A DNA stretch of 53,064 nt, from positions 1-53,064 of the forward strand of contig CAZDHR010000002.1 in NCBI GenBank assembly GCA_964505295.1, written 5' to 3'. The stretch comes from an uncultured Planctomycetaceae bacterium. GTDB lineage: Bacteria; Planctomycetota; Planctomycetia; Pirellulales; Thermoguttaceae. Both the position numbers and the translations under genes were made by a program. The notes under the pieces were generated by a model. The model worked only from the letters and a program-made list of their open reading frames with translations. It had not been told where the DNA came from and searched no databases. Below are positions 467 to 44,251 of the stretch, in pieces; the stretch's first letter is position 1, and each line of letters starts with the position of its first letter.

Positions 467-3400
467 TCAGAGCTCGGTCCACGGGCCTTGGGTCTGGAGC
501 ACGAAGTCGATCGATGCGACGTGCTTCGTGTCGGTCCCACCTTGCGATGAGGTCGCCGATACCCGAGCGAAGTCATACGCCCAGACGCTCAGGTCGGCGT
601 TGAACAGAGCGGCCGTACTGCCGGAAGCCTCCAGGTGGTCGTCGCCCGCCGAGTCGTACAGGTAGGCTCGGTCATATCCGCCTGCACCGGCGTAGGCCTC
701 GACACTCTCGAACGAGACGGCGCGGTGATAGAATCCGTAGCCCCAGATCTTGGCGTAGTCGGGCGTGGCCACGAATCGATCGTCACCGGCCGAGTCGTAC
801 AGATTGACCGTGTCGTTGCCGCCGGCCGTCGCGTAGGCCTCGACGTAGCGGAACCCCACGGCGCGATTGGAGAACCCGGTGCCATACAGCTTGCCGTCGT
901 CGGGCGTGCCCACGAACACGTCGTCGCCCGAGGAGTCGTACAATTTGGCCAGGTCGGTGCCGCCGGCCGTCGCGTAAGCATGGACGTAGCGAAACGCGAC
1001 GGCGAGATGGTAGAACTCGCTGCCGTAGATCTTGGCGTAGTCGGGCGTAGCCACAAATCGATCGTCGCCGGGCGAGTCGTACAGCCTGGCCTCATCGTTG
1101 CCGCCGGCCGTCGCGTAGGCAAGCACATAGCGGAACGCCACGGCCCGATTGTAGAACCCGTCGCCCGAGAGCGCGGCGTCATCGGGCGTGCCCGTGAAGA
1201 GGTCGTCGCCGGCCGAGTCGTACAGCCGGGCCAGGTCGCTGCCGTCCCCGGTTGCGTAGGCGTGGACCTGATCGAATGACACGGCGCGATTGAAGAACGC
1301 GTAGCCGTAGAGCTTGGCCTCGTCGGGCCAGGCCCTGAATTGGTCGTTGCCGGTCGAGTCAGACAGTGTGGCCACATCGCTGCCGCCGGCCGTCGCGTAG
1401 GCGTGGACCCAGCGGAATCCCACGGCCCGGTTGAAGAACCCGTCGCCGTAGAGCTTGGCCTCGTCGGGCGTGGCCACGAAGTCGTCGTCGCCGGCCGAGT
1501 CGTACAGGGCGACGACGTCGTTGCCGCCGGCCGTCGCGTAGGCATGCACCTGGGCAAACGACACGACGCGGTTGAAGAAGCCGTCGCCGTAGAGCTTGGC
1601 GTACTCGGGCGCGGCCATGAAGGAGTCGTTTCCGGCCGAATCGTACAACTCGGCGACGTCGGTGCCGCCTTCTCTGGAAAAAGCATGCACCTGGCCGAAA
1701 GCGTAAAGTTGGTTGTCGAACCCATCGCCGTAGAGTCGGGCGTGCGTCGTGGTCGCGACGAAGGTGTCGTCGCCGGCCGAGTCGTAGAAACACCCGACGT
1801 CGTCTCCCCCCTGTCCCATGACGGTGACGTCGGCCGTGTTGGCCACCGCGACCTCATACCCGGGACCGCTCAGGGTGGCCCGGGACGGGTGCAACACGGC
1901 GGTATCCGCGCCGGCGGAGCCCAGGAGGACGGCCGCATCGTCGCCCGCCCCGCCGTCGAACTCGAAAGAGCTGACCGCCGAGACCTGGAACTCGTAGTGG
2001 ACGCCGTTGATGGTCACCTGGTGCCACTCGCCGGCCGCGAATTCGAGGCGGTCGTCGCCGTCGGTGCCGTAGACGGACACGCCGGCGCCGTCGTAATGGA
2101 CCAGGTTGGCCAGGCGCAGGTCCACGTCGGCGGCGTCGCCGGTGACGCTCAAGTAGAACGTCTGGCCGGCGTCGACGTCCCAGTCGATCCGCTCGCCGCC
2201 GTCGCTCACGGTCGACGCGGCCAACTCGTTGCGGTCTGCGTCGTAGAGCCGGACCTCCAGGCTCGCGGCCTCTTGGAAGAGGGCTTCGATCGTCAAGTAG
2301 CCCTGCCGGGCCGTCTGGCAACTATACCAGTGCTCGGCGCCGGCCAGGTTCAGGTCGGCGATCTGGAGGAAATCGACCTCGCCCAACTCGGTGGCGGGCG
2401 TCGCTTCGCTGGCCAGGAAATCGACGCCCTGGACCGTCTCGCCCTGCTGGACGCTGACGACTTGGACGCCGTCGACCGGGTTGGTGTGCTCCCAACCGGA
2501 CGACAACGCGTGGCGAACGCGGTAGGTGCCCTCGGGCAAGTCGGTGAACACGAACGTGCCGTCGGCGCCGGTTTGCGTGTACGGCTCGTCAAACGCGATC
2601 TCCAGCGACCAGGCGTTCAAGGTGCCGGTGTCGGCGGTCATCGTGTCGGTGATCTCGAGCGTCCACGTGCCCGTGGCGAGCTCGCCGTCGAACCTCGACA
2701 ACCGGCCTTCCGGGCGGAAGGTTCCCGAGAAGGGAGCGGCGGCATCGGCAATCGAGGTGCCGGCTTCGTCGTCGAGCGTCGTGTCGGTGAAGTTATCGCC
2801 CCAGCTCCCCACGTTGGTGAACAGCTCGACTTTGGTCCCCGAGGGGCTGACGAGGTAGACTTTCAGGTCGCCGTCGTAAGTGTGCGTGATGTCGAGGGTT
2901 ACGTTGACGTCGGCGACCCGGGCCCCGCTGGCGATTAGCAGCGAGGAGGTCACGGTCGTGTTGTCCACGACGTCGACCGGCACGTCGTTCGACGCCACGG
3001 TGATCGTGCCGACGTCGAGCACGCCGTTATCGTTGAGATCGAGGAACACGGTCTCGCCGACGAGGACGGCCTCGCCCGGTTGTTGCTGGCCGTCGCCGTT
3101 GACGTCCTCCACGAGGACGCCTTCGATCTCGCCGTTGGTGACGGCGTCTTCTCCGATCTGAAGCGGGGTCTCGGGGTCGCCGAACAGGTTGGTTTCGAAG
3201 TGAATCCAGCGATACACCCCCGTGGAGCCGACGCGAAACAGACTGTCGTCCTTCGAGTCCTGATTGGCCTCGCCGAGGTGGGTCAACCCCTCGTTGAACG
3301 CGGCGTCCCAGAACTCCAGGGCGTAGTGGTGGCTTGCGCCGGGCGTGTCGCCGGGCACGTACCAGCCGTATCGCGAGTTCATCACCACGCCGAAGGCACC

Positions 3401-5137
3401 GTACTCGGCGACCACGTGCTGCTCCGCGATCGACCGATCGTGCGTATCGAACGACCCGGACATGCATCCCTGCGAATACATGAAGTAGGGATCCGTATTC
3501 GTCAGGCTGGCGACGGTCGAGTTCACGAGTCGCGCGTTGTACGTTTCGTTGGCGTGGCCCAGGTGGTTCACCAGGTGGGGACTGTCCTGCAAATCGCCGG
3601 CGAATTGCGAGCCGCTCCATCCGCCGTCCGAATCGTACCGCTCGATGACGGTCCAGTCCTCGGGAATGCACTGATCCGCAATGGGGATGCCAGAGTAGCT
3701 GCCCCACGTCGAGTCGTCGAGCTGCTCTCCCAACCAGACGGCCGTGGTGGCGTTGGCGTGGCCCGTGGTCTCGTACTGGATCGTCTTGGAGACGAAGTTG
3801 GCCGCCTCGGTCACGTTGCTTGTCGGGGCCCGACCGACGTAAACCTCCGCCGTCAGATCCACGTCGCCGCCGCCGGTCCCGTCGTTCGACTCGCCCCAGA
3901 GCCCGTCGCCGTCGCCGTTCCAAGTGCCTTCGAGGCAGGCGTAGTACATGTCCGTGGGCAGGCTGTACTCCACGGTGGAGCCGACGCTGGCGTAGACGCC
4001 TCGGTACGGAATCACCTCCGAATCGCCGCCGAGCAACACCCACTGAGTACCCCAGTTGGCGTAGGCGTCGGCGATGAAGTTGCGAATTCTGTCGGCGCCG
4101 TCGCCGGTCTCCGTGCCCGAGTAGTTGGCGTAGATGTACTCCGTCGTGACGATCGTGGCCGAGATTCCGCGACTGATTTTCTGGCTTGCCAGGGGCTGGA
4201 AGCTGTCTTCCAGCGCGCTGCTGGTGACGATCACGTACTCGTACTGGCCGGCCGCGGGGAGCATCGTCGAGGCGTCTTCGGAAGTCGACGCCGCCGTGGT
4301 GTAGAGGCTGATCGCCTCGGGATTGTCGACCAGCTCGATCACGCGCTCCCGGTCCGGCTCGGAGTCGCGGGGCGAAACGGCCTCGTCGGCCTCGACGGCG
4401 GCGGTCACCACCACGGAGACCTCGGAGTGGTAGATCAGAACGTCGGCGGCCGCGTCGTACTCGACGGGAAAGACCGTCAGCGTGGCCAGGTCGTAGCCGC
4501 AGAGGGTGTGGTTCGAGTATTCGACGGCTTCTTGCTGGCCGAATGAGGAAGAGACGAAGGCCACCGACTCGACGGCAAGGTCGCTCGTGCTGCTAAGAGG
4601 CACGGCCACGGGAGTTGCCAGCAACTGCACGCCCTCGGCGATGACGACGCCGGCGTCGAGGTACTGCGCGTCGATCGACGTGACTGCCATGCCTTGGGGC
4701 AGAAGGATCATCGACTCGCGGACCGGCATCAGGGGATCGCCCGTCGAGACCCAAGTCTCCTCGCCTTCCAGACTGACGATCGCGCCGCCGTCGATCTCTT
4801 CCACCGTGGGCACGCCGTCGAAGACGAATTCGAATATCGCGGTCTGGCCGTTGCCGTCTCCGCTGAACACGCCGCAGGCACCGCACGCCAACCAAGCGTC
4901 CTGGCTCGCGTCCACCGGCTGTTCAATCGCCGATGCGACGGACAGCAGGAATCGCTGCTCCAGCGGCTCGAATCGGCAGCGGCGACCGCCGCGCATCGAA
5001 GACCGGGCTCGCCCGGTCGACGGGAGCCCCGATGTTCGTCGGGGTGATTCGTTCGGATTGGCTTTAAGACGACGGGTCGTTGGGGCTACCGTGGTGCGGC
5101 TTCGACGTTGTCGGCGCATGGTAAACCTCGGGTGCAT
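467..5137 (-). CDS. Secreted gingipain-like cysteine peptidase (family C25) with P-domain, PPC-like domain and C-terminal 47-aa repeat module
   Basis: 1,556-codon ORF. Leader RCRFEPLEQRFLLS. C25-type motifs WVLLGGDSEVIPYR and TDMYYACLEG, with His in VNHLGHAN (His528, nt 3554-3556) and Cys in YSQGCMSGSF (Cys558, nt 3464-3466). P-domain-like THTYDGDLKVYLVSPSGTKVELF. Nine 47-aa repeats at the C-terminus. Start uncertain: ATG 5137 has no SD, while in-frame ATG 5119 has GAGG about 7 nt upstream. Confidence 0.85.
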   Translation of the reverse strand: MHPRFTMRRQRRSRTTVAPTTRRLKANPNESPRRTSGLPSTGRARSSMRGGRRCRFEPLEQRFLLSVASAIEQPVDASQDAWLACGACGVFSGDGNGQTAIFEFVFDGVPTVEEIDGGAIVSLEGEETWVSTGDPLMPVRESMILLPQGMAVTSIDAQYLDAGVVIAEGVQLLATPVAVPLSSTSDLAVESVAFVSSSFGQQEAVEYSNHTLCGYDLATLTVFPVEYDAAADVLIYHSEVSVVVTAAVEADEAVSPRDSEPDRERVIELVDNPEAISLYTTAASTSEDASTMLPAAGQYEYVIVTSSALEDSFQPLASQKISRGISATIVTTEYIYANYSGTETGDGADRIRNFIADAYANWGTQWVLLGGDSEVIPYRGVYASVGSTVEYSLPTDMYYACLEGTWNGDGDGLWGESNDGTGGGDVDLTAEVYVGRAPTSNVTEAANFVSKTIQYETTGHANATTAVWLGEQLDDSTWGSYSGIPIADQCIPEDWTVIERYDSDGGWSGSQFAGDLQDSPHLVNHLGHANETYNARLVNSTVASLTNTDPYFMYSQGCMSGSFDTHDRSIAEQHVVAEYGAFGVVMNSRYGWYVPGDTPGASHHYALEFWDAAFNEGLTHLGEANQDSKDDSLFRVGSTGVYRWIHFETNLFGDPETPLQIGEDAVTNGEIEGVLVEDVNGDGQQQPGEAVLVGETVFLDLNDNGVLDVGTITVASNDVPVDVVDNTTVTSSLLIASGARVADVNVTLDITHTYDGDLKVYLVSPSGTKVELFTNVGSWGDNFTDTTLDDEAGTSIADAAAPFSGTFRPEGRLSRFDGELATGTWTLEITDTMTADTGTLNAWSLEIAFDEPYTQTGADGTFVFTDLPEGTYRVRHALSSGWEHTNPVDGVQVVSVQQGETVQGVDFLASEATPATELGEVDFLQIADLNLAGAEHWYSCQTARQGYLTIEALFQEAASLEVRLYDADRNELAASTVSDGGERIDWDVDAGQTFYLSVTGDAADVDLRLANLVHYDGAGVSVYGTDGDDRLEFAAGEWHQVTINGVHYEFQVSAVSSFEFDGGAGDDAAVLLGSAGADTAVLHPSRATLSGPGYEVAVANTADVTVMGQGGDDVGCFYDSAGDDTFVATTTHARLYGDGFDNQLYAFGQVHAFSREGGTDVAELYDSAGNDSFMAAPEYAKLYGDGFFNRVVSFAQVHAYATAGGNDVVALYDSAGDDDFVATPDEAKLYGDGFFNRAVGFRWVHAYATAGGSDVATLSDSTGNDQFRAWPDEAKLYGYAFFNRAVSFDQVHAYATGDGSDLARLYDSAGDDLFTGTPDDAALSGDGFYNRAVAFRYVLAYATAGGNDEARLYDSPGDDRFVATPDYAKIYGSEFYHLAVAFRYVHAYATAGGTDLAKLYDSSGDDVFVGTPDDGKLYGTGFSNRAVGFRYVEAYATAGGNDTVNLYDSAGDDRFVATPDYAKIWGYGFYHRAVSFESVEAYAGAGGYDRAYLYDSAGDDHLEASGSTAALFNADLSVWAYDFARVSATSSQGGTDTKHVASIDFVLQTQGPWTEL
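520..1795 (-). repeat. Nine tandem 141-nt coding repeats (47 aa: LYDSAGDDxFxAxPDxAKLYGDGFFNRAVxFxxVHAYATAGGxDxA)
   Basis: The GAGTCGTACAG-like landmark recurs at ~655, 796, 937, 1078, 1219, 1360, 1501, 1642 and 1783, a period of 141 nt. Protein copies are clearly alignable and the last copy is degenerate. Confidence 0.9.
2105..2390 (-). other. PPC-like (pre-peptidase C-terminal type) beta-sandwich domain
   Basis: GEVDFLQIADL...HWYSCQTARQGYLTIEA...LEVRLYDADRNELAAS...GQTFYLSVTG. This has the PPC pattern (D-x-Y-x-F ... L-x-L-Y-D ... G-x-Y-Y-L-x-V). Assigned from memory of the family, no search run. Confidence 0.5.
2590..2965 (-). other. Proprotein-convertase P-domain-like module
   Basis: VADVNVTLDITHTYDGDLKVYLVSPSGTKVELFTNVG...FSGTFRPEGRLSRFDGELATGTWTLEITDTMTADTGTLNAWSLEI, the classic P-domain signature. 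Confidence 0.7.
3150..4250 (-). other. Peptidase C25 (gingipain-type) catalytic domain
   Basis: Runs from YEYVIVTSSALEDSF to NLFGDPETPLQ. His528/Cys558 dyad is 30 residues apart in the G-H-A-N / Q-G-C-M-S-G contexts expected for clan CD C25 enzymes. Confidence 0.7.
4940..4972 (-). other. N-terminal leader motif FEPLEQRFLLS
   Basis: Follows a ~55-aa Arg-rich N-terminus. Same motif class as VEQFEERMLLS in the giant protein (40261-40293). Confidence 0.7.
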
Positions 5138-5539
5138 ATCTCATGGTGCGTAGAATCATCGAGTCGTCGGACTGGGCAGAGACCGGCGATGCGCGCGCGG
5201 ACTTGGAACGGACGGTCTACCGACGGCTGCACGGGTGGTGAACCGAGGGCGGCCGACGGGAGCCCGGTTTTTCGGGCATTCGCGTTTGACGCACCGACAA
5301 TCAACAATGGAGCAGACTTCAATAGATGCAGACGATGCAAACTGCCTTCCCTCACGCGAGACGGGAAGCGCGTTGAGCGACGCCCAGACGAGAACCGGAG
5401 AAGTGACGGATGGGGAGAAGAGAGACGGAGTCCTCCGCCTTCAAAAGGACTATAGGTCGATTTGCCCGTGGCGTCCGAGCCCCTTTAGGGAATCCCCGGG
5501 AAACCTCCGAGGAATCCCTGTCTCACTGGGGAAGAGGCG

Positions 5540-5557
5540 GACTTTGCCGACTTTGCC
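5540..5557. repeat. Perfect tandem duplication GACTTTGCC x2 in the intergenic spacer
   Basis: Read directly (5540-5548 and 5549-5557). Confidence 0.9.
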
Positions 5558-5868
5558 GGGCACTCGCGACGGCCGGAGAGGATGGGGTCGCGGCAAAGTG
5601 GCGTTGCACCAAGGCAACCAAGTTGCCGAAACACGACGGGAGCCGAATCGGGAGGGTGCTGTCCGGAAGGGGACGGCGACGCCCCGGAAGTTCAATCCGG
5701 GCGCGTTTGGCAAAGACCCGCGCAAGCGCGTATGCACCGCCGGGGACGAAAAGTTGCCGCCTACCGGGAAGGAGAGTCCTTGCGGACGGCCGCTAAGCGA
5801 GGTTCCTCGCCCCGGCGTTCGGCGGCCAAGACGCGGATGTTCGCCGCGGCAGGGCGAGTCGCAACCTA

Positions 5869-7290
5869 TCAGTAGTCCCGGTTCATGTTCAGGATGAAAT
5901 CGACGGCGTCCGGATCCGGGTCGACGTCCTCGGTGTCGCCCAGATTGCTCCGGTCGGCGTCCACCTCCTCGAAGTCCGACACGGCGAAGTAACAGCCGAG
6001 CACCTCGTTGGACAGGCGGGCCCAGTTGTCCGCGGCCTCGAAGTGGTCGGGAGAGGTCTCGATGATCGAGTCGTGCAGGTAAGCGTGGTCATACCCGCCG
6101 GGCGTGGGCTCGGCGTCGGCGTGGCCGATCACTCGGTCGAAGTACCTTGCCCGGTTGAAGAACCCGTCGCCATAGAGCCTCGCCTGGTGGGAGTCGGCCA
6201 AAGCCTCGAACACGTCGTCGCCCGGCGAGTCGTAGAGGTGGGCCAGGTCGCCATTGCCCTGCGTGGCGTAGGCGTACACGGCATCGAACGACTTCACCCG
6301 GTTGAAGAACCCGTCGCCATAGAGCTTGGCTTCGTCGGGCCAGGCCTTGAAGGTGTCCGGCGAGGTCGGGTCATCGTAGAGCACGGCCGAGTCGCCGCTA
6401 CCCGCGGTCGAGAAGGCGTGCACTTCGTCGAACGACTTCGCTCGGTTGAAGAATCCCTTGCCGTAGAGCTTGGCTTCGTCAGGCCAGGCCTTGAGCGTGT
6501 CCGCTTCGGTCGGGTCGTCGTAGAGCACGGCCATGTCGCCGCTGCCGGGGGTCGAGAAGGCGTACACGGCGTCGAACGACTTCGCCCGATTGAAGTACCC
6601 GTCGCCGTACATCTTGGCCTGCTCGGGCCAAGCCTTGAACGTATCCGCTCCGTCCGGGTCGTCGTAGAGCCTGGCGATGTCGCCATCACCCGGCGTGGCA
6701 TAGGCATGCACCTCGTCGAACGACTTGGCCTGGTTGAAGAAGCCATCGCTGAACAGTTTGCCGAGGGTGGGCGTCGCCCAGAAGGTATCCTTGCTGCCGG
6801 CACGGTCGCGCAACACGCCCACGTCGCCGTTGCCCTGGGTGCCGTAAGCGAGCACCTGCCCGAAGGAGTAAACGCGGTTGGTGAATCCCTCGCCGCTGAG
6901 CTTGGCAAACTCGGGCGTGGCCAGGAAGGTATCGCGTCCCAGGGGATCGTCCCGGAGAATCGCGATGTCCTTTCCGCCACCGCCATCCGCCGTGACGAAC
7001 TCCGCTCCGGCGATTGCTACCACGAAGCCGGGGCCGAAGAACGCACCGTAGTCGGACCTCAGGTTGGCCGTCTCGTCGGCACTGGTGCCTTGGAAGACGA
7101 CTGCGTCGATGCCCTCCCCGGCGTTGAAGCTCACGTAGTCTACGTCCGCTGCGGCGAAGCTGTAGGTCTCGCCGTTGATGAAGGCGGTATAGGCTTCGCC
7201 CTCAAGGCCGCCGGTGAAACGGAACACGTCGGTCCCCTCGGTGCCCACGATGATCACCCTCCGGCCGTCCTGCGTGACGCTACCCGGTTC
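5869..7290 (-). other. C-terminal module homologous to the C-terminus of the 467-5137 protein
   Basis: VGTEGTDVFRF...INGETYSF...FNAGEGIDAVVFQGTSADETANL...GGGGKD, then 48-aa repeats, ending DAVDFILNMNRDY. It parallels YGTDGDDRLEF...INGVHYEF...FDGGAGDDAAVLLGSAGADTAVL...GQGGDD, then 47-aa repeats, ending ASIDFVLQTQGPWTEL. Confidence 0.85.
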
Positions 7291-10200
7291 CCAATTGACG
7301 GTCGGGACCTCGATTCGATAGTCTTCCACCTCGCCGTCCGGGGCGGTGCCGGTGTACGGCACGTCTTGCCATGTGTTCTCGTCGTACAGCCGCACGACGC
7401 TGTCATCCTCCCAGGTCCACTGCCACGTGCTGAAGCGGAATCGGGCGTAGGTGTCTCCGGGCATTGCATCGGCCGGGACATCGAAGGTGACGTAGTTTGT
7501 GACGCTGGGGCCCGGGGCGAGCTGCACGGCGTAGCCCGTGCCGTTCGGCCCCTGCATATCCAAGTGTTCCCCGGGATCGTCCCAGTCTCCGTCCCGGTTA
7601 AAATCGATCCAGGCACTGAGCCATGCCCCCTCGGTGGTGACGTTGTCGGTAGTGACAACCTGCAACGTGAGGGGCATGCCGGGCGTGATGCCCTCCAGCC
7701 CGAACACGCCGTTCTCGTCGTCGTGGTCAGGGTCCGGGTCGGCGTCGTCCCCGGTCGCGGCTTCGCTGGGAATCCCGTCGTCCTCGACGTCCAGGCTCGA
7801 GCCGTCCGGAGCTTCCGCACCCAGGTACAGCTCCTTGTTTTGCAGATGACGGGCGCCGTTGTCGGCCAGCAAGGTCGGATAAGGCGCCGGCGCGTCGCCG
7901 AAGTCCATGTCGCCGTCGTCGTTGAGGATTGCGATCACCGCCTCGGTCTCGTCGACGGCCACGCTCTGCGTGCCGGGAGTCACCACGACAACCTGCGCCT
8001 CGGCACTGAGAACCTCCAAGAGGAAGGTCTCATCCAGTTCGACGTCCGTATCGCCGTTGATCTCCAAAGTGACCGTGAAGGTCAGCGCGGGCTCGGCCTT
8101 GGTGGCGACGAGGATCTCGAAGTCCTCGCCGTCGTGGTACCTCCAAGCCATCATTTCTTCGGAGATCTGCGGATACCAGTCGAACGCGTCGTTGTCCGAC
8201 AGGTTGATCGGGATCCGGTCGGCGCCGAACTCGTAGTAGTAGACCTCCCAATCCGTGCCGTCCCAGGTGTGCCAGACCGCGTAGTTGCCGGCCACCCGAG
8301 GATGCTCGTCGCTCAACGAGCTGTTGGAGATGTTCACGGCCGCGGCGCCCGAGGCGGCGTTGGCGACGTTGCTGTAGAAGATTTCCCAGTTCGTGCCGAC
8401 TAGGCCCTGCCAGACCACGTTGTTACCGGAGATGTGCGGATCGATGTCATCCGCGGCGTCGTCGGTGAGCTGGAACGTGGCGCCGAAACCCGTGTTGGGA
8501 TCGAACGAATGGAGGAAGACCTCGTCGTCCACCCCGTCGTCGGCGACCCAGAGGATGTTGTTGCCGTCGATCGATACGGAGTGTTCCGAGAGCGTGTTGT
8601 TGGTCACCTGGGTCTTCACTCCGGAGGCGCCGGCTTCCGCCCGGAACAGATACACCTCCAGGTCGGTGCCGTCGCTGCCGTACCAGGCGACGTTCGAGCC
8701 GGAGATTCGAGGATCGTAGTCATCGAAGTTGTTGTTGGAGATGTCCTGCGGCGCGCCGGCGGCGGCGATGTCGTAGAGGAAGATGTCCTGGTCGGTGGGC
8801 GTGTGGCCCGTCCAGGCCACATGCGAATCAGATACCTGCGGCATCTTGTCGTCGTAGTCGTTGTCCGTCAGTCGGACGGTCGTCGACGTCGTCGTTTGAG
8901 TCGTCAGGTCCGTCACTCGGGTGCACAGATAAATCTCATAGTCCCCGGCGTTCGGGTCTACGGGGTCTTCGCCCTCTGGGATACCCGCCCAGACGACGTG
9001 GATGGTCTGCGTCGTGCCCTCGGTGAACTTGTACACGCTGGCAAGTTTGTCGTCCGTGCTGTTATTGGTGAGCCGTTCAGGCGACTCCATCGTCGTGGCG
9101 TCGTACAGGAAGATCTCCCAGGTCTCCCCGACGCCGACCGGGGACTCGTAGACGAGGCTATCGCCGGAGATCTGGTAATCGTAGTCGTTGGATCGGTCAC
9201 TCGTGATCGTCTCGGTGGTCCACTCTTCCAGAGGTTGACCGTGTGGGTCAATCGTGATCGACGAGTCGACGACAGTGTGGTAATCTGCATCGCTGGGATC
9301 GGGCGCCGTCGGCCCGACGAGATCGCCGCCTCGGGCCGCGGTGGGGTCGGTATCCGGGTTGCCGGTCTGCTGGGTTTGGTACTCGATCGTGATGGGAGCA
9401 CCGAAGGACTCCGTCACCTGGAACGTGACTTCAACCGTCGTGGTCGGATCAATGCCCGAATTCCCTTCCACCACGGTCGCGTCGGCGACCGTGACGTGCG
9501 GGACCTTGTAGTTGCCGAAGTTGACGCCCGCCAGCGCCTCGCCCGAGCTTAGCTCCACGGTGTAGTAGCCGGCCTCCCGGCTATGGGAGCCGGCGTTGGA
9601 CGTCAGCCGCGTGGTTCCGGCGTCGAACGTCACGAGGTCCCCGGTCAGCGTGACGGTTCCGCCGATCGAGCTGGCAGTGATCAGGAAGGACGCGCTCGAC
9701 ACCGAATTCACGGCCGTCCGAATCGCCCTGGCCACCGTCGTTCTCGAATCGCCGGGCGTGAACGGCACCCGCACCGCCGAGGCGTTGCTTACCACGTTGT
9801 CACTATCCAACTCGAACACGACCATGGCATCGCCGTCGCCGATGGAGAAGGTTTGCCGGTCGGTGACGTTGGCCACCTGAGAAGTGCCGACGCCCGGGAC
9901 GGCGACGTCCATGCTGCCGCCGGCCAGATAGAGGTCGTCGCTGTTGGGGGCCGTCTGGAGCCAACCCGACGGAACGACTTCGTTAACCGTGTAGGACCCG
10001 TCGAACAGTCCTGGGAATTCGTAGAACCCCGTCTCGTCGACGCCCGTCGTCAACGGGTCGTCCGCCATGGTGACCGTCGACTTGCCGTCCAATTCGATGG
10101 TCACGCCGGCCAAGCCGGGCTCGATTCCCAGCGGGAGGCCGGTGCTCGGATCGAATCGGAACGCGTACTGGACGTTCATGGCGTCCAGGTCCGCCTGGCT

Positions 10201-13200
10201 CGACGGACGAGCCAGGCTGTAGTAATCGGTGAAGTTGCCGCTGTCGAAGCCGATTTCGGCCCCGCCCCCGCCGAATCCCCCCGCGCCGCCGTCACTGTCA
10301 CCCGTCGTCCACGACAGATCGACCACGTTGTCGCCGTTGGCGTCGTAGTAGTGGAACGCGACGATGTCGCCGCCGAGATCGTCCTCGATATGGAGCGCGA
10401 AGCTGTTGCGTGCGTCGGTATTGCTTCCACTCGTGCGATCGTTGTAGCCGACGTTGACCCAGTCCACCTGGACGAACGGGTTACCGCGCTCGGTGGTTCC
10501 GGTGGCCAGGTGGACGCTGCCGCCGTTGTCGCGCGTGTCCACGTCGGCCCAGAACGGGGCGATCATGGGCATGTACTGCGCGAACCCGGCGACTCCGGGA
10601 GTCCTCTGGTAAGGCCCGAGGAACGTGATGTTCCCGTTGTTGTTGATGTAGAACCGGTCGTACGTCTGCCCGTAGAACTCGAAGTCGAACCCGAACGAAA
10701 TCGCGCTGGAGTAAAGGTTGTCGTTGGCCGACACGTTGTTATACGGCACGCCGTCGCTGTCGTAGCCCGACATCAGGACGCCGACGCCCGGGGAGACCGG
10801 CTCGATCACGGGAGCAACCCCGCTGGAGGCCGGCTCTTGATCCCAAACGCCGTCGCCGTCCAGGTCGTTGAACACGTAACCGCCGATCGACGCGTCGCCG
10901 ACCTCGATGTGGACTCGATAGTCCTCGACCTCGCCGGGGGCGTCGGACCCACCCGTCGGAGACTCGACTTCGGTGTCAACCGAACTGAACCGGAACCGAG
11001 CGAAGGTCGTCAAGGCGTTCAGGCTCGACGGCACGACCAGCCTTTGCGCGTCCACTTCCGGCATCGCGAGCAAGTCGGCCAGATCGTAAGTCGTCGTGAC
11101 TCCCGTCGTCCCCAAGGGCACCGCGGAGAGAATCTCTTCCCAGATCTCGTTGCCTTGGGCGTCGGTGTAGGCACTCTCGGCCCAAACGTTGTCTTGGTTG
11201 TAATCAACCCAAGCGCTTAGGTAGCCCTCGCCGGTGACCGTTACCTGCAAGCCCTCGATATGGTTGCCCACAGCGAACCGGGTCCAGGTAACGCCGTCTT
11301 CGTCGTCGCCGTACGCTGGGTCCGCGGCGAACTCATCGTTGTCGTCGCCCTCGGCGATCGCGTCCGGCTGGCCGTCGGCCTCGGGGTCGACCAAGTAACC
11401 GAGGTATATCTCTTCCGAAACCGCATGGCTGGCACCGTCGTCGGCAGCCAGCGTCACATAGGGCAGGGGCGCGTCGCCGAAATCGAGCCCACTATCATCG
11501 TTGAGGATCACGATCTCGGCTTCGTCTTGCTCGATTACGACTTCCTCGACGGCGACCGTGTTCAGGTCCACCACGTCGGCGCCGTCGATGATCAGGCTGA
11601 ACGGCTCATCGTACTCGACGTCCGTGTCGCCGAATACGACCAGCGGAATCGTGACCGTCACTTCCGGCTTGGCCCGCGTGGCCACGATCAGCCGGTACAC
11701 TTCGCCGTCCAAGGCCCGCCAAACCACCAAATCCTCACTGACGACAGGATATCGGTCTTCCAGGTCGAAATCGGCGGAAACGTTCTGTGAAGCCATCGCC
11801 GTATCCAACCCGCGGTACATGACTTCCCAGTTGCCCCCGAGTTGCTCCGACTCCCACACGACCTGATCGCCTTTGATCTGGGGATTCCCGTCGTCGAAGT
11901 AGGCATTGGCGGAGACGTTGACCTTCGCCCCGGAAGACACTTGGTAGCGGAAGATGTCCCAGTCTCCGCGGCCGCTCGGATCGGAGTCGTAGCCCTGCCA
12001 CACCACGTTGTCCCCAGACACCTCGGGCGTGTTGTCGTTGTACGCGTTATCCGTGATCCGGGTGAACGTCTCCGATTCGATCTGGTAAAGGAAGATCTCG
12101 TAGTCGCCGCCGTCGTGGCCTCTCCAAACCACGTTGGAGCCGTCGATCCGAGGCGAGCGATCCGTCAAGGTGTTGGTGGTGATCGCAGTAACGGCGGGCG
12201 TGCTGGAATCGCCGTCGGTATCGTTGTGCAGATTGTAGAGGTAGATCTCGAAGTCCTTGCCGTCGTCCCCGTACCACACGACGACGGTATTGGTGACCGC
12301 CGCGCCGCCGGAGCCTATCTGGTAGCTGGAAATCTGCGGCTCGAAGTCGTCCAGACCGGCATGGTCGTAGATCCGGTCGGAGAGGTTGGCTATCCCACGC
12401 GTGCCGACGTCGTAGAGGTAGACTTCACGGTCGGTAGCGGTCTCGCCCCACCACGTCACGTAGGAGCCCGACACCTGGGGGTCGCCCACCTCAAAGAGAG
12501 TGTGGGTCACTTGGGTCGTGGCCCCGGTGTTGATGTCGTAAAGGAAGATCTGCGAATCGTCGCCCGTACCGCCGGTACCGAACACGCCGTCGTGGCCGAC
12601 CCAGGTCACGTAGCCAGTCGCCCCGTCCTCCGACACGTACATGTTCACGGCGTAATCGTCCGTGTCATTACGGGTGATCTGGATGACGGCGTCGGTCTTG
12701 GCGTCATAGAGGAAGATTTCCGTATCCTCGGTGCCGGTGCCACTGCTCCAAACGACGTAGTCCTCTGAGACGGCGTACGACGACACTCCTCCCGGAAGCT
12801 GGATGGAGCCGTCCCGCGTCGCCGGGGATGTCGTGTCTTCCTTGGTACGAAAATAGCGCGGCGCGTCCTTCTCCTCGACCGGGCCCGACGTGCCTCCCGC
12901 GGAATGGGAAACGACCATTTGCTGAAGGAAGTCGTCCCACTGCGTGTCGGCGACGAACTCCAGGGTCGAGTTGTATGCGGAGTGGACCGTGTCGCCCTCA
13001 GCGGGCAGGTAAATCGACAAACCGGTCGCGGTGTAGTACGCGCCGGAGTACACCTCCACCACGGCGGCGTCCACCGCCGCCTTCACCTGGCCCGCGGCCG
13101 TGACGATCGCCGGAGCCACCGACGCGGCCTCCACCAGGCTCATGAAATGGCCCAGATCGCGGAACTCGGGATCGCCGAACCCCTGGGCCGCGTCGCGCGC

Positions 13201-16200
13201 GGCTTGCACGGCATTCCAGTCCGCCGTGGTGGCCGACGTAATCATCAATTCGGCGAACCCCTCCAACTCGCCGACCAAACCCGTGGTTGCGCTGCCGAGT
13301 TGGCTGAGGTCCGTCGCCGTGAACGTATCCGTCGGATATCGCAACGCGTAGGCGTCGACGATCACGCTTCCCAGCGCGGCGGCGTCCATTCCGGGGTCGC
13401 TCACCAGCGGCCCGAGGATGTTCTGATACTCCCATCCGTCCCAGGGCTCCGTCTCCTCGCAGGCCGCCATGACGTCCGCCTCGTTGCCAAGCTGATAGGC
13501 GATTTCGGTCATGCTCATCAAGCAGGCGTCGAAACCAACGACCTGCAAGTGGGGAAGTGCGTCCATCGCCACGGCCAACTCGTCCATTTCGAGATTGTCG
13601 AAACTCGTGTCGTCGTAGCAGAAGCCGTAATACCCGCTCCCATGGTCCCAGAACACCAGAGCGTAATTCGACGACGGGTACTCGGTCATCGCCCAGTCGA
13701 CGAAGTCGACGACCGTGTCCGGGTTGCCCATGTTGACCTCTCCAAGGCCGATGCCCCAGTTGCCGTCGGGGACATCGCCGGCCTCGACCAGGCCTCGCCG
13801 CGCGCCGGTCCAGTTGCCGTATCGGGTGTCATAACCGAAGATGCGGTCGAACTGGACGACGACGTTCACGTCGCCAGTGGAGCCGACGCTGGCCATTTCC
13901 AGGAAGTCGTCGATCGCGGCGTCCTCCAGGTTGCAGTCGCCGTCCAGGTAGACCATGAACGTCCAACCGACCGCCGCCGCCGAGCTTCCCCCGCCGAGCA
14001 CCGCGATCGATTCCGAGGTCCACGCTCCCAGCGGCGGACTCTGCGGGTCGATGGTGACCTGCTCCGCGTACGCCGGATCCGACGGAAGCACCGCCGTATC
14101 GGCGTCCTGGTAGTCGTCGCCGCCCTCGGCGCCATTGGGCGGATCGCCGTCTTCGGTGTGGTAGTCAAGCGTGATCTCGGCCCCGAACGATTCGGTCACG
14201 TGTACCGTGACCTCGACCGGCGTTTCTCCCAAGTCTCCTTCGCCCACCCAAACGTCGGAGACCGCGATCACGGGCTTCCGGAAGTTGCCGAAGTTCGCGA
14301 TGCTGAACAGCTCTCCGTCCTCCAGGTAAACCCCGTAGGACCCTTCTCCCGTCGTCCCGTCCACTTGACTGAACGACGTAATGTCTTCCAGCGGGCTGCT
14401 GGTGTGCTGGGAGAACTCTACGGCGGCGTCGCCGACAGCCCTCAAGATTACGGAATTACCCGTTACCGATGCGGAGACGTCCAGCCTCCCCACACGGTTC
14501 ACCGCGCCTGCGATGGCCGTGGCGACCTGCGCCGCGGTGGTGGCGCCGCTCACGTTGACGAGCACGTTGGTCGAACCCGAGTTCCCGTCGCCGTTCAGGT
14601 CGAACTCGAACCGGACGCGGTCAGTCCCGTCGAACACCTCGAACCACTCGGATTCCTCGAGGTCCTGCTTCTCGACGGTCTGGATTTGCAGGACGCCGGT
14701 AGGCACGTACTCGTCTTGATTCGGATACGTCTGAAGCCAGTCGCTCCAGGCATCCAGACCCGGAATCTCGGCCTGAAGCCGTCCGAGTTCCGTGGGCTCG
14801 ATGTCTACTTCCTCGCGGACCACGAAATAAGGCGTCGCGAGGCCCGGATACTCGCTGCTGGCCAACAGCCTGTCGAACTCATAGTAGCCCGTTTCGTCCA
14901 CGTCGGACGTGGACAGATCGTCCTCCGTGGTGAGCGTCCACGGTTCCGGGACTACACCGTTCGGGAGGTCGTAATCGAAGTCGAGACTTCCGTTGTCGTT
15001 GAGGTCCAGGTAAACGAGCGCGCCGGCCAAGCCGGGCTCGGGGTCAATGGGCACGCCGGCGGTCGGGTCGATCCGGAAGGAGTACTGCTCGATCTGAAGC
15101 AATTCCGACAGGGTCATTGGATCGTCGGGCCGCATCACGCTGAGGTAGTGAGCGCCGTCGCCGGCGTCGAACCCGATCTGAGCGCCCTGCCCTCCGAACC
15201 CGTTGCCGGTCCCCGACCGGTCGCCGGTGGTCCACTCCATCGCCGCGTACTGGAAGATCACAATATCGCCTGCCGCATCGTCCTCGATGTACACCGAGAA
15301 CGTGTTGCGAGCGTCCGTGTTGCCCGAGTCGGTCTGATCGTAGTATCCCACGTCGATCCAGTCGACCTGGACGTACGGCTTGTCGCGCTCGCTGGTCCCC
15401 GTCGACCACCGCACTTCGCCGGCCCCGTTTCGCGTGTCCACGTCGGCCCAGAACGGAGCGATAATCGGGGTGGACTGGGGGAATCCGTCCGGCGAGAAGT
15501 CGCCCAGCGAATCCTCGAACGTGATGTTCCCGTTGTTGTTGATGTAGAACTGGGTGTACGTATTCCCATAGAACTCGAACGAGAAGCCCAGGTCGAGAAG
15601 ATCCGACGACAGGTCGTCGTTCGGGCCGACGTTCGTGTGGATCATACCGTCGCTGTCCCTGCCCGACATGAGCACCTGTTGGCCCGACCCGAGCGTGTTC
15701 AACGTGACCGCCGGCACGGAGATCGGCTTGCCCTCGGTGTTCCAGACGCCGTCGCCATTGACGTCGTCGAACTTGTAGCCGCTAATCTTGCCCTCGCCGA
15801 CCTCGATCGGGACCTGATAGTCCTCCACCTCGCCGAACGCCACCTCAAATCGCTCGGTGTCGGAATTCCAGAACCAGTATGCTGCGGTCGGAGATGCAAC
15901 GGCTTCCTCGATCGAACTGAGCCGGAACCGGGCATACGTGGTCATGTCGCCCAACTCGGCCGGGATGTAGACGTAGAACGTGCGAGTTGGCTGGCTGCCG
16001 TCGAAGTACCGTTGGTCTTCAGGGATAATCTCTTCGGAGATCGGGTTGCCGTCGGGGTCGAGATAGCCCGTGTCACCGTCCCAGACGCCGTCCCCGTTGA
16101 AGTCGATCCACGCATTCACGTAGCCGACGCCCGTCACGGTCACCTCGAACGTGGCGATCTGGCCCGGTGCCAGCCGGTCCCAGGTGACTCCGTCCTCGTC

Positions 16201-19200
16201 GTTTTCGCCGAGCTGCTGCCAGTAGACGTCCCGGTCGTCGCCCAGCGCGTTGCCGGCGGATAGCTGGCCGTCGGACTCGGGGTCGAGCAACGTGCCCAGG
16301 CACAACTCGACGTTTTCGTAGTTGCTGTCCCATTTGATTTGATGGTAGGCGCCGCCGTCGGCCAACAAGGTGGCATAGGGCGCCGGCGCGTCCCCGAAGT
16401 CCAATCCGACGTCGTCGTTGCGAATCTCGATTTCGGCCGTTCCGTCGTCGACCAGCACACTGCCGGTAATCGTGGTGCCGTCCTCAGGATCGACGACTTC
16501 CGCTCCCGTAACGTGCAGCAAGAACCATTCGTCCGGCTCCGGCGTGTAGTCGCCGATGACGTTCAACTGGATGGTCGCGGTCACAACCGGCTCAGCCTGC
16601 CTGGCCACCATCAGCCGATAGTCCGCGCCGTCGTAGGCTCGCCACACGACGAGGCTGTCGCTGAGGAGCGGATAGCGGTCCTCGCCGGCCGAATCCTGCG
16701 ATACGTTCTGCGGGATCGCTTCGGATCCCAGCCTGGTGTGCATGATCTCCCAGTTGTCGCCCAGGTGGTTCGACTCCCAAACTACCTGGTCGCCGATGAT
16801 TTGGGGATTGGCGTCCTCCAGCGAGGCGTTCGACGAGACGTTCGTCCTTGCCCGAGTGGGAATGTGATAACGGAAGATGTCCCAGTCACCGCGGTCGCCG
16901 GGCAGCACGCCGTCGTAGCCCTGCCAGACGACGTTGGAGCCGGAAATCTGTGGCGTATTGTCGTCGTTGTCGTTGGGGAGGTTGACCTGGGTGGTCGTGC
17001 CGGTGCCCGTGGCCGGGTCGTACTCGAACAGGAAGATCTCGTAGTCGTTGCCGTCGTAACCTCTCCAGACCACGTTGTTTCCGTCGATTTGCGCCCAGCC
17101 GTCCGTCACCGTATTGCGGGTCACCTCGACCACGCGATCGGCACCGGCGTCGTACAGGTAGATCTCGTAGTCCTTTCCATCGTATCCCTGCCAGACGACG
17201 TTGGAACCGGAAATCTGCGGGTCGTAATCGTCCAGCCCGGCGTGATCGTAGACCTCTGCTGAGATGTTCAGGGTGGTGTCTGCGGCAATGTCGTACAGAT
17301 AGATTTCCCGGTCGAGCGCCGTATCGCCCCACCAGACCACGTGCGTACCCGACACTTGCGGATCGCCGACGGCATAGGGGGTGTCGGTAAGCTGGGTACT
17401 CAGCCCCGTGTTGACGTCGTATAGGTAGATCTGGGAATCGTCGCGGGTCCCGCCGGCGCCGAGGTCGCCGTCGTGGCCGACCCAAACCACGTACGAGCCG
17501 GAGATTCGCGGCGACTCGTCGTCCGTTTCGTTGGCGGTAAGCTGGCGCATCGTCTCGGTGGCGGCGTCGTAAAGGAAGATGTCCAGGTCGTCTCCGTCCG
17601 TGGCCTCCCAGACGACGCGATCGCCGGATACGTCGTAGTAATACTCCGCCTCCGCCTCCTCCTCCATGATCAGCCCGGTGGTCGGATCGATCCGGACGAC
17701 CCACTGGCCCATCGCGTTGAGCACGTCCAGGTCCGCCCGGCTGTTGGGCCGCGGCAGGCCCTGGTAGTTGAGCCCGTCGCCGGAATCGAAGCCGATCTGG
17801 GCGCCTTCTCCGCCGAAGCCGCCCATCCCCTCGGCGTCGCCGGTGGTCCACTCCATGTTGTCGTACACGAAGGCGACGATGTCGCCCATCGGGTCATCCT
17901 CGATATAGAGCGTGAACGTGTTCGACCTGTCGGTCGTCGCATAGTAGTAGCCCACGTCGATCCAGTCGACCTGGATGTAGGCGTGGCCGTCGGCCGTCAC
18001 GCCCTGGGCTAACCGGACCTCTCCGCCTAGCTCACCGGTCTGCCAATCGGGGCGGGTGTCGACGTCGGCCCAGAACGGGGCGACGATCGGCGTGCTCTGC
18101 GGGAACCCGGCCGCTACGTAGGTCCCCAACGCCTGCGTGAACGTGATGTTGCCGTTGTTGTTGACGTAGAACTGCGTGAAGTTATTGCCGTAGAACTCGA
18201 ACGTGAAGCCCAGGTCAAGAAGCGCCGACGACAAATCGTCATTGGCGTACACGCCGGTGTACTGGAAGCCGTCACTGTCCCAGCCGGACATAGGAACCTG
18301 ACTACCTGGGGCCACGAGTTCGAAGTCAGGCGCTCCGGCGACCGCCTCCCGGGGATAAAGATTCCCGAGCGCTTCGGAACTCCAGACGCCCAGCGGCTCC
18401 TCCTGCGGTTCGATGATGAACGACTCGTAGTCCGGGTCCGTGGGATCCACCGCTTCGTAGTCGGCATCCGGATCGGGATAGGGGTCCTCCGTTTCGTTGT
18501 CGATCCCGTCGACGGCCGTGTCGTCCTCGGTCTGGTAGTCGATCTGGATCGTCGAGCCGAACGACTTGGTCACGTTGACCGTCACGTCGACCGTGGTCAC
18601 TCCCACGTCGCCTTCGTCCACCGAAACGTCGTCGATGCTCACGTGCGGCTTCCGGAAGTTGCCGAAGTCGGCGCCGTAGCCGGGTCCGTCCGCCCCGAAG
18701 TGCTCGCCCGCACCCAATCGGACCACGTACGCGCCTCCGAGAGTGTACGAGCTGATGAGGGCGATCGGACTGGTCTCTTGCTCGTAGACAAGCGACGCGT
18801 CCTCGTCCGTGGCCGTCAGCCTCAAGGTCACCACGCCGGCCGACGCCACGGCGGAAACCTGGAGATTCGTCGCCGTGCCGACCGCCGTGGCGATCTTCCG
18901 CGCCACGTCGTCCACCATATCGGCATCGGTAACGCTGATTGCAATGCGCCCGCTCAAAACGTCCGCATTCCACGAAGGATCATCGGTCTTCTCGAACTCG
19001 AACTCCTGCGTCACGGTCCCGTCGCTGATCGAGAACCACTGACCGTCTCTCAGAGGCGAATCGGGGTCGTTCGCGGCAACGGCGTTGAGTTCCAGCGTGC
19101 CTTCCGGCACGTAGTCCGGCTCGCTGGAGAGGGGGTCCGGATACGTCTGGAACCACTCACTGAACCACTCACTGAAATTCACGAATTCTTCCGGCACAAA

Positions 19201-43978: not shown

Positions 43979-43988
43979 GGGGAAAGTA

Positions 43989-44034
43989 GGGAGTTGGGAG
44001 TTGGGAGTTGGGAGTCGGGAGTGGGGAGCTTGGG
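43989..44034 (+). repeat. Tandem heptamer (GGGAGTN)x6 plus TGGG. G-quadruplex-type motif on the plus strand, C-rich leader of priA on the minus strand
   Basis: Units at 43989, 43996, 44003, 44010, 44017 and 44024. Seven G3-4 tracts are separated by 3-5 nt. The repeat starts 11 nt upstream of the priA ATG. Confidence 0.9.
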
Positions 44035-44251
44035 TAATTGGCGGACGTCCGTTGTGCGCGTCGCGAGCACGGCAAGCGCAATATAGGGCCAGACGGGCGG
44101 ACAATGCAACGCTCGCGGCGCCGAAGGGCATGTGGACGGGCCACTGCCGGCCGCGTATCCTGGAACCCACCGTACGGGACGCCGGCTGCCGTCGTCTATA
44201 CGGCACCGTGTCCTTCTTGAGAACCCTGCTTCCGACGGGAGGGACGAATCC

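Follow-up and report, generated by a model that had tools for sequence, protein, structure and literature searches.

A large uncurated family of C-terminal repeat modules in Planctomycetota, probably a Ca2+-dependent beta-solenoid scaffold of exported proteins

Among the proteins that Planctomycetota secrete are many large enzymes and giant surface proteins, and the routes by which these are exported and retained are poorly understood. In the stretch of planctomycete DNA analyzed here (53,064 nucleotides; referred to as the window), a gene for a peptidase (A) and a neighboring gene for a giant protein (B) both end in a long module of acidic repeats, which raises the question whether this module is a known domain, a tag that marks its carriers for a particular pathway, or a structural element. 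The initial annotation of the window favored a dedicated sorting, anchoring or assembly module shared by the cargo proteins of one pathway.

The features of the two genes are collected in Table 1. Protein A spans the whole PF01364 profile (positions 1-374 of 374 in Pfam) and accordingly belongs to peptidase family C25. Protein B combines S8, FG-GAP, LamG, NHL, beta-helix, NIDO, GEVED, C11 and SdrD_B domains. Scans for Rfam families, tRNAs, promoters and terminators added nothing further to the annotation of the window.

Table 1. Positions in the window of the genes for proteins A and B and of their parts
Feature	Coordinates	Strand	Basis or remarks
ORF A, Peptidase_C25 protein, 1556 aa: LEPR-XLL-type leader, Peptidase_C25, P-domain, C-terminal repeat module	467..5137	minus	ORF list and domain matches
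LEPR-XLL-type N-terminal motif of A (FEPLEQRFLLSV)	4940..4975	minus	NF012209; long basic stretch before the motif
Peptidase_C25 domain of A, aa 301-659	3161..4237	minus	Pfam, E = 1.5e-53
Proprotein-convertase P-domain of A, aa 742-846	2600..2914	minus	E = 3.2e-19
Module A, N-cap, module aa 1-45	1967..2101	minus	holds RTX-like turn GTDGDDRLE and INGxxYxF motif
Module A, degenerate first repeat, module aa 46-104	1790..1966	minus	register by eye and DSSP
Module A, 8 canonical 47-aa repeats (141-nt period)	662..1789	minus	HMM i-E 1e-24 to 1e-28
Module A, degenerate last repeat	527/530..661	minus	HMM i-E 2e-7; DSSP
Module A, C-terminal cap (TKHVASIDFVLQTQGPWTEL), predicted beta-hairpin	470..529	minus	alignments and model
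ORF B, giant protein, 11,513 aa: LEPR-XLL-like leader at N-terminus, repeat module at C-terminus	5869..40410	minus	ORF list and domain matches
LEPR-XLL-like motif of B (LRVEQFEERMLLS)	40261..40299	minus	9.8 bits against NF012209 cut-off of 17
Module B, head (N-cap and degenerate repeat)	6958..7290	minus	sequence and A/B alignment
Module B, 6 canonical repeats (144-nt period)	6079..6957	minus	Tandem Repeats Finder and HMM
Module B, degenerate last repeat and tail (...DAVDFILNMNRDY)	5872..6078	minus	sequence and A/B alignment

The C-terminal 544 aa of A (nt 470-2101) are collinear with the C-terminal 473 aa of B (nt 5872-7290) and, in an alignment that includes the head region, 47% identical to them (E = 8e-99), so the two modules are homologous. 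This relationship had already been noticed in the initial annotation, and the extent that it assigned to module A stands except that the frame edge lies at 2101 rather than at 2100. Tandem Repeats Finder detects the 141-nt period at 710-1786 in A and the 144-nt period at 6270-6749 in B, and a repeat HMM run over all six frames of the window matches only these two modules. The earlier counts of 9 x 47 aa in A and 6-7 x 48 aa in B prove correct to within one copy (HMM combined with DSSP or inspection by eye); among the canonical copies of B, one is longer (53 aa) than the other five (~48 aa). The degenerate first repeat of module A falls below significance for the repeat HMM; by eye, it is in gap-free register with the canonical units, and it shows the same five-strand DSSP pattern. 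At the other end, the Trp of the cap is invariant in an alignment of 38 C-terminal sequences and at least 90% conserved in an alignment of 40 modules. The tail motif initially given as D-F-[VI]-L is indeed kept across the family, as D-[FY]-[VIL]-L and mostly in the form ..VD[YF]xLxxxGxW, the G-x-W part of which is absent in B and in its ortholog.

A search with the repeat profile retrieves 3,086 protein clusters (50% identity level) at E <= 1e-3, with 1,270 of them reaching E <= 1e-30, so that the module is by no means restricted to A and B, a restriction that would have counted against the initial reading. Every named carrier belongs to Planctomycetota. The regions upstream of the module are highly diverse and include S8, C25 and M10 peptidases, phosphatases, sulfatases, lyases, cyclophilins, CAP domains and giant adhesin-like proteins. 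Of 250 carriers, 236 (~94%) have the module at their very C-terminus and the remaining 14 have it N-terminally or internally, and some carriers consist of a leader and the module with nothing else; given that it also occurs N-terminally or alone after a leader, the module constitutes an independent domain. A scan of genome contigs with a single protein yielded seven related loci, and carriers tend to cluster in tandem, with A next to B both here and in L001 and with trios of carriers in L002 and L003. Thus, the module represents a large uncurated family that is known so far from Planctomycetota alone, and it ranks among the most frequent building blocks of the exoproteome of this phylum. A defined family would improve the annotation of thousands of proteins that are currently labeled hypothetical.

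Pfam and NCBIfam scans of the whole proteins, the isolated modules and a three-repeat piece, extended down to E = 10, assign the module to no family, and searches of PDB sequences with a single module, the repeat profile and a C-terminal profile return only chance-level matches. Literature searches on LEPR-XLL, on giant genes or calcium binding in Planctomycetes, and on beta-solenoids, beta-rolls or RTX in this group turned up no paper on the module. The module is therefore without a Pfam or NCBIfam model or a solved relative, and the view of it as an unannotated, mostly C-terminal element common to varied cargo, with no confident match to a characterized repeat family, holds for thousands of proteins.

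AlphaFold2 models of the 544-aa module of A (pLDDT 97.4, pTM 0.91) and of its last 205 aa (pLDDT 98.0, pTM 0.93) are both all-beta with a regular five-strand period, in line with the beta-solenoid that had been suggested as a possible outcome of modeling, and the tail is modeled as a structured hairpin. From these models, the module is predicted to be a self-contained, rigid and acidic beta-solenoid domain, although acidity is not peculiar to the repeats as the whole carrier proteins have a pI of ~4.1. A closed beta-propeller was considered as well since a 47-aa unit of 4-5 strands resembles a propeller blade, and was rejected on account of the copy number, which runs from 3 to over 20, and of the solenoid nature of the structural matches. 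With pLDDT values of 97-98, the module appears to be a well-behaved target for work on Ca2+-dependent folding and for export or anchoring reporters.

The consensus of 1,258 repeats, LYDSxG[DN]DxFxAxPxxAxLxGxGFxNxAxxFxxVxAYAxxGGxDxAx, agrees with the one originally derived from the two proteins. Within strands, conservation follows an alternating i/i+2 pattern; the highest values fall on three Asp residues and the Gly residues of two turns, D3-S4-x-G6-[DN]7-D8 and G41-G42-x-D44, the conserved turn residues being D3, D8 and D44 together with G6, G41 and G42. The conserved inward-facing core, made up of small and aromatic residues, comprises L1, F10, A12, L19, G21, F24, N26, A28, F31, V34, A36 and A46. 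The outward-facing positions are variable, with the exception of the semi-conserved Y2 and Y37 that lie beside the acidic turns.

The best PDB matches of the full-length model in Foldseek are Ca2+-loaded RTX rolls, namely CyaA (E = 4e-6 and 7e-6, probability 0.99-1.0, with a TM-score of just 0.16-0.23) followed by the MIS38 lipase, serralysins and RsaA. For the 205-aa model, Foldseek returns nothing better than E = 0.09, with query-normalized TM-scores of at most 0.33, and the rmsd to the closest RTX domains is 7-8 Å. Within every 47-aa unit, one stretch has the form of an RTX-like nonapeptide, xSxG(D/N)Dx(F/L)x, and GGxDxAx makes up a second turn. A PSSM derived from 26 nonapeptides of CyaA has its maximum at repeat positions 3-11 (+2.7 SD over shuffles), with a secondary peak at positions 39-47 (+1.8 SD), but scores the repeat at 2.7 bits compared to 20 bits for true nonapeptides. 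PF00353 (HemolysinCabind) matches neither module nor the three-repeat piece at E <= 10. The resemblance to RTX is thus weak. The original statement that the repeat is not the RTX unit stands for sequence and probably for global fold; it was too strong insofar as every unit includes an RTX-like nonapeptide and the closest structural matches of the full-length model are RTX beta-rolls.

The module shares with the RTX beta-rolls of CyaA, serralysins such as AprA, family I.3 lipases, RsaA and RTX adhesins the Gly/Asp-rich acidic repeats, the presence in exported proteins, the usually C-terminal position, the predicted all-beta solenoid, one turn per unit that fits the nonapeptide G(N/D)Dx(F/L), and a conserved C-terminal cap, for which block V of CyaA offers a precedent (PMC9120197). 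In contrast, the RTX unit is 9 or 18 aa long as opposed to the five-strand unit of 47 aa, the tandem nonapeptides GGxGxDxUx are missing from the module, and its carriers differ by an LEPR-XLL-type leader, by the lack of T1SS genes nearby at the loci inspected and by their occurrence, so far, in Planctomycetota alone. In architectural logic, the closest analogs are the R-modules of AlgE mannuronan C5-epimerases, which likewise are Ca2+-associated beta-roll units present in variable copy number C-terminally to secreted enzymes. However, these are ~150 aa long, contain genuine nonapeptide runs and are found by a synthetic RTX query, unlike the module, which is undetected by every RTX-derived search. 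In its distribution, a single module attached to numerous unrelated secreted enzymes of one phylum, the module resembles sorting tags such as the T9SS CTD and dockerins, yet it is much larger, variable in length and not strictly terminal. The T9SS CTD is a beta-sandwich of ~80-100 aa in a Bacteroidota context, in contrast to a long predicted solenoid in Planctomycetota, and NCBIfam scans detect no T9SS CTD (TIGR04183 and relatives); the sole T9SS-related match is to PorU, by the catalytic C25 domain of A, and reaches 60 bits where the cut-off is 420. Dockerins consist of a Ca2+-binding pair of 22-aa EF-hand-like segments of loop-helix structure, whereas the module is modeled as all-beta and has no Pfam match to PF00404.

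The N-termini of the carriers provide a second common element. The first 100 aa of A, taken alone, score 18.8 bits against NF012209, the model for LEPR-XLL proteins (giant Planctomycete proteins), with a cut-off of 17, and thus contain an LEPR-XLL domain, whereas the whole protein scores 13.3 bits. Among the other carriers, one (P0003) also exceeds the cut-off (18.2 bits), and B (9.8 bits) and others (12.8-13.1 bits) fall below it, with the motif recognizable by eye. B and most carriers share [LF]E.[LF]E.R.LLS after a basic stretch, and a leader of the LEPR-XLL type is present in most full-length carriers. A Sec or Tat signal peptide was rejected as an explanation of this leader upon inspection because the basic stretch is not followed by a hydrophobic core. 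NF012209 covers the N-terminal motif only, and the C-terminal repeat module is included in no curated model; together with the leader, a defined module family would give a handle for predicting the planctomycetal secretome.

Several functional readings of the module have to be weighed. The RTX-like repeats and the VD[YF]xLxxxGxW tail might constitute a type I-like secretion module, that is, an export signal combined with a Ca2+ folding ratchet, with an ABC/MFP/TolC-type exporter as for RTX toxins, serralysins and giant RTX adhesins, and with the basic LEPR-XLL N-terminus as a possible retention element. The predominance of the extreme C-terminal position, the fact that the top structural matches of the full-length model are all T1SS substrates, the conserved Asp followed by three hydrophobic residues in the tail, the leader devoid of a Sec-type core and the layout of the giant adhesin-like carriers, which is that of RTX adhesins, all speak for this possibility. 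We nevertheless consider it distinctly unlikely: no ABC, MFP or TolC genes were identified in the window or within ~10 kb of the carriers in L002, L003, L008 and L009, classic T1SS substrates do not have a conserved N-terminal leader, in 14 of the 250 carriers the module is N-terminal or internal, the tail is modeled as a structured cap with no disordered signal beyond it, and there are no bona fide nonapeptide arrays. Alternatively, the caps or the stacked Ca2+/Tyr edge might bind an envelope component or a scaffold protein, in which case the module would be a functional analog of a dockerin, SLH domain or T9SS CTD that keeps exo-enzymes at the cell surface. Such surface anchoring or assembly, suggested by the attachment of the module to dozens of unrelated enzymes, the tandem arrangement of carriers, the strongly conserved head and tail motifs and the outward orientation of Y2 and Y37, seems unlikely given that, apart from these two residues, the exposed side of the repeats varies, that the size of the module (250-550+ aa) and its variation in length are far greater than those of known sorting tags, that N-terminal modules also exist, and that no recurrent transporter, sortase or candidate partner gene is found in the right flank of the window or near the carriers in L002, L003, L008 and L009.

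AlgE mannuronan epimerases carry RTX-type R-modules that bind alginate. By analogy, the repeats might hold anionic polysaccharides, either algal or the own EPS of the bacterium, via Ca2+ bridges and so target enzymes to their substrates; a true RTX sequence has AlgE R-modules among its relatives in the PDB, the repeats are multivalent and present stacked acidic turns as well as Tyr residues, and hydrolases, lyases, sulfatases or phosphatases are frequent among the carriers. However, the cargo is chemically so diverse (proteases, a cyclophilin, CAP) that a single shared ligand is unlikely, the exposed positions are poorly conserved, and no CBM in Pfam resembles the module, so we regard polymer binding as quite improbable. 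A broader possibility is that the module and the LEPR-XLL leader mark the substrates of an undescribed, Planctomycetota-specific pathway of export and surface display, in which the module or its cap would be recognized for translocation or envelope attachment, as a planctomycetal equivalent of either the T9SS CTD or the T1SS combination of RTX and signal; we hold this to be a minority option. The dedicated sorting or anchoring pathway initially proposed is not supported by the gene neighborhoods, with no transporter genes beside the carriers, or by the presence of modules outside the C-terminus.

The reading that we prefer, with about even confidence, is that the module is probably a Ca2+-dependent beta-solenoid scaffold of exported proteins. 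It is built of an N-cap, 3 to ~30 five-strand units of 47 aa and, usually, a conserved C-terminal hairpin cap ending in G-x-W, and the two Gly/Asp turns of each unit resemble the Ca2+-binding turns of RTX rolls. Ca2+ binding by this D/G-rich module is plausible. At the low Ca2+ concentration of the cytoplasm, the acidic module would stay unfolded; upon export of the proteins with LEPR-XLL leaders, it would fold as Ca2+ occupies the stacked Asp turns, with nucleation from the C-terminal cap. [quoted passage not shown] Once folded, the module might serve as a rigid, stable stalk or a folding lock that bears the upstream enzyme or adhesin. Judging from the conservation pattern, the variable exposed faces of the repeats appear to fit a scaffold better than a receptor-binding tag. 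A pure scaffold role leaves unexplained both the strong preference for the extreme C-terminus and the strong conservation of the linear tail motif. The length of the proposed scaffold would be set by the number of repeats: among the 250 carriers, the HMM detects from 3 to 21 copies per protein, an exhaustive search finds up to 31 matched stretches, and the count varies even between orthologs (6 versus 5), as expected of a length-tunable scaffold.

Two neighboring genes at the left end of the window (ORF A and ORF B) encode proteins that terminate in the same kind of repeat module, and the last 544 aa of ORF A are collinear with the last 473 aa of ORF B from the head (the N-cap and a degenerate repeat) through the repeats (47% identity, E = 8e-99). 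Tandem Repeats Finder detects periods of 141 nt and 144 nt, and a repeat HMM made from the array copies and run over all six frames confines the repeats to nt 527-1789 and nt 6079-6957 of the window, with eight canonical 47-aa copies and one degenerate copy in ORF A and six canonical copies in ORF B. A further degenerate copy, identified by eye in the head of ORF A, is in gap-free register, and its five-strand pattern matches in the structure model. Given the alignment, the periods, the HMM copies and the head copy, the two collinear C-terminal repeat modules proposed in the initial annotation stand, except that a one-base frame slip placed one boundary at 2100 instead of 2101 and the copy numbers hold only to within one copy. 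Two plus-strand ORFs antisense to the modules, 1340-2938 (532 aa) and 6043-8403 (786 aa), are probably composition artefacts.

Genes encoding proteins with the repeat module in the window and in three related loci from other genomes
Feature	Location	Coordinates	Strand	Product
ORF A	window, left end	467-5137	minus	1556 aa
ORF B	window, left end	5869-40410	minus	11,513 aa
Giant-protein and C25-protein genes	L001	3-6167 and 6716-10867		
Module-gene trio	L002	4538-14395		
Module-gene trio	L003	1404-11617		

The N-terminus of ORF A is basic and includes the motif FEPLEQRFLLS, and the first 100 aa match the LEPR-XLL leader family NF012209 of NCBIfam (18.8 bits, above the curated cut-off of 17). The leader is followed by a Peptidase_C25 domain (E = 1.5e-53); a proprotein-convertase P-domain is also present. 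The best NCBIfam similarity of the C25 domain is to the T9SS sortase PorU, at 60 bits, far under the cut-off of 420. ORF B encodes a giant, multi-enzyme surface protein whose leader is LEPR-XLL-like (VEQFEERMLLS, which scores under the NF012209 cut-off). It contains two distinct peptidase domains, S8 near the N-terminus and C11 clostripain near aa 8,820-9,160, along with FG-GAP, LamG, NHL, beta-helix and SdrD_B domains, at least two NIDO domains and several GEVED domains.

No relatives of the module were found in Pfam, NCBIfam or PDB sequence searches with single sequences and profiles. When module A was the query in a word-indexed search, 727 of the 8,000 scored candidates matched significantly. 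A profile of 98 diverse repeats, run exhaustively with HMMER, retrieved 3,086 cluster representatives (50% identity) at E <= 1e-3; 2,436 of them reach E <= 1e-10 and 1,270 reach E <= 1e-30, and single proteins have as many as 31 repeat stretches. All matches with a named organism come from Planctomycetota (Thermoguttaceae, Pirellulales/Pirellulaceae, Gemmataceae or 'Planctomycetaceae'), and no source has a name for the module. The repeat-domain family that the module represents is large and uncurated, has so far been seen only in Planctomycetota and merits a definition of its own. The domains upstream of the module vary widely; the most common is the S8 peptidase, in an architecture of about 930 aa with 4-5 repeats. 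Other upstream domains include M10 and reprolysin peptidases, alkaline phosphatase, sulfatase/phosphodiesterase, GDSL lipase, SASA esterase, transglutaminase and cyclophilin as well as pectate-lyase-type beta-helices, CAP, cadherin/Big_9 and GEVED.

In a set of 1,258 repeats of exactly 47 aa, the positions that carry information are L1, Y2, D3, S4, G6, [DN]7, D8, F10, A12, P14, L19, G21, G23, F24, N26, A28, F31, V34, A36, Y37, A38, G41, G42, D44 and A46. Conservation in the strands alternates in an i/i+2 pattern that indicates an inward-facing core, with the alternate, outward-facing positions nearly free; the core and the acidic turns are conserved, and the surfaces vary. AlphaFold2 models built with homolog alignments have very high confidence (pLDDT 97.4 and pTM 0.91 for the 544-aa segment; 98.0 and 0.93 for the last 205 aa) and contain five strands per 47 aa and a beta-hairpin tail, that is, a predicted capped beta-solenoid. 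In Foldseek comparisons, the best match of the long model is the CyaA RTX domain (E = 4e-6 and 7e-6, probability 0.99-1.0), followed by weaker matches to MIS38 lipase, serralysins, AprA, RsaA and other solenoids, with TM-scores of only 0.1-0.2. The 205-aa model has no match better than E = 0.09, and its best query-normalized TM-score is 0.33, to CyaA block V and serralysin. On these results, the best description of the modeled module is a beta-solenoid that is RTX-like locally and lacks a close solved homolog.

The segment D3-S4-x-G6-(D/N)7-D8-x-F10-x fits positions 4-8 of the RTX nonapeptide GGxG(N/D)DxUx. A PSSM derived from 26 CyaA nonapeptides peaks in this register (+2.7 SD over shuffles), with a second maximum at positions 39-47 (+1.8 SD), but the absolute score is 2.7 bits compared to 20 bits for true RTX repeats. 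None of the tests run placed the module in the RTX, T9SS-CTD or dockerin families; it belongs with the Gly/Asp-rich beta-solenoid repeats, presumably Ca2+-binding, that occur in exported bacterial proteins.

In 236 of a set of 250 carriers, the module lies within 130 aa of the C-terminus; in the other 14, it is N-terminal or internal, ahead of beta-helix, sulfatase or other regions. In one group of proteins, 437-523 aa long, there is only a leader before the module and a short tail after it. Among the 214 carriers with an initial Met, 145 show a [LF]E.[LF]E.R.LLS-type motif preceded by a basic stretch. The module is a modular domain, mostly C-terminal in proteins with LEPR-XLL leaders. We also observe two variant architectures among homologs (P0017, P0027, P0031, P0035, P0048, P0052; P0055, P0076, P0105, P0107), namely, small proteins in which the LEPR-XLL leader and module precede a different tail (…FEAVFVMNDNGGYDP…), and proteins in which the module comes straight after the leader and is followed by a parallel beta-helix (pectate-lyase-like) domain, the G-x-W cap being absent.

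The order of the giant and C25 proteins is retained in L001 (Thermoguttaceae MAG, DATKZH010000032), where the counterpart of module A is 83% identical. The module of the giant ortholog has five repeats, two with 4-aa insertions, versus six in the window, indicating that repeat number changes between close relatives. In L002 and L003, a trio of consecutive genes, each encoding a protein that ends in the module, is kept in two MAGs; the products are an unknown protein of ~820-840 aa, a cyclophilin/He_PIG protein of ~1400 aa and an alkaline phosphatase of ~1010 aa.

The reading to which we give about an even chance is that the stacked Asp/Gly turns would bind Ca2+ and the module would fold only after export, serving as a rigid stalk or folding lock with a length set by repeat number. 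Folding might be nucleated by the conserved C-cap, by the precedent of CyaA block V, where the C-terminal cap is reported to be critical if the RTX domain as a whole is to fold (PMC9120197). A tag, either a dockerin- or CTD-like surface anchor, as initially proposed, or a T1SS-like export signal, would also fit the strong preference of the module for the C-terminus and the conservation of its linear tail motif. However, the N-terminal and stand-alone occurrences of the module, its variable surface and its variable length argue against such roles, as does the lack of linked transport genes: no ABC/MFP/TolC, sortase-like or other recurrent partner genes were seen in the inspected neighborhoods of carriers. 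We consider the anchor unlikely and the export signal somewhat less likely still; a polymer-binding module is the most improbable of these alternatives. About as unlikely as the anchor is a planctomycetal export pathway, so far undescribed, in which the module would serve for recognition or anchoring.

Elsewhere in the window, the heptamer AGTTGGG, repeated in tandem about seven times (43985-44034), lies directly upstream of the likely true priA start, the ATG at 43978 on the minus strand (MPDQQQSLFDKEP…), so that the listed PriA ORF (41693-45754, 1353 aa) is probably over-extended at the 5' end. As listed, it overlaps a plus-strand ORF (44132-46780) with weak GH123_N matches.
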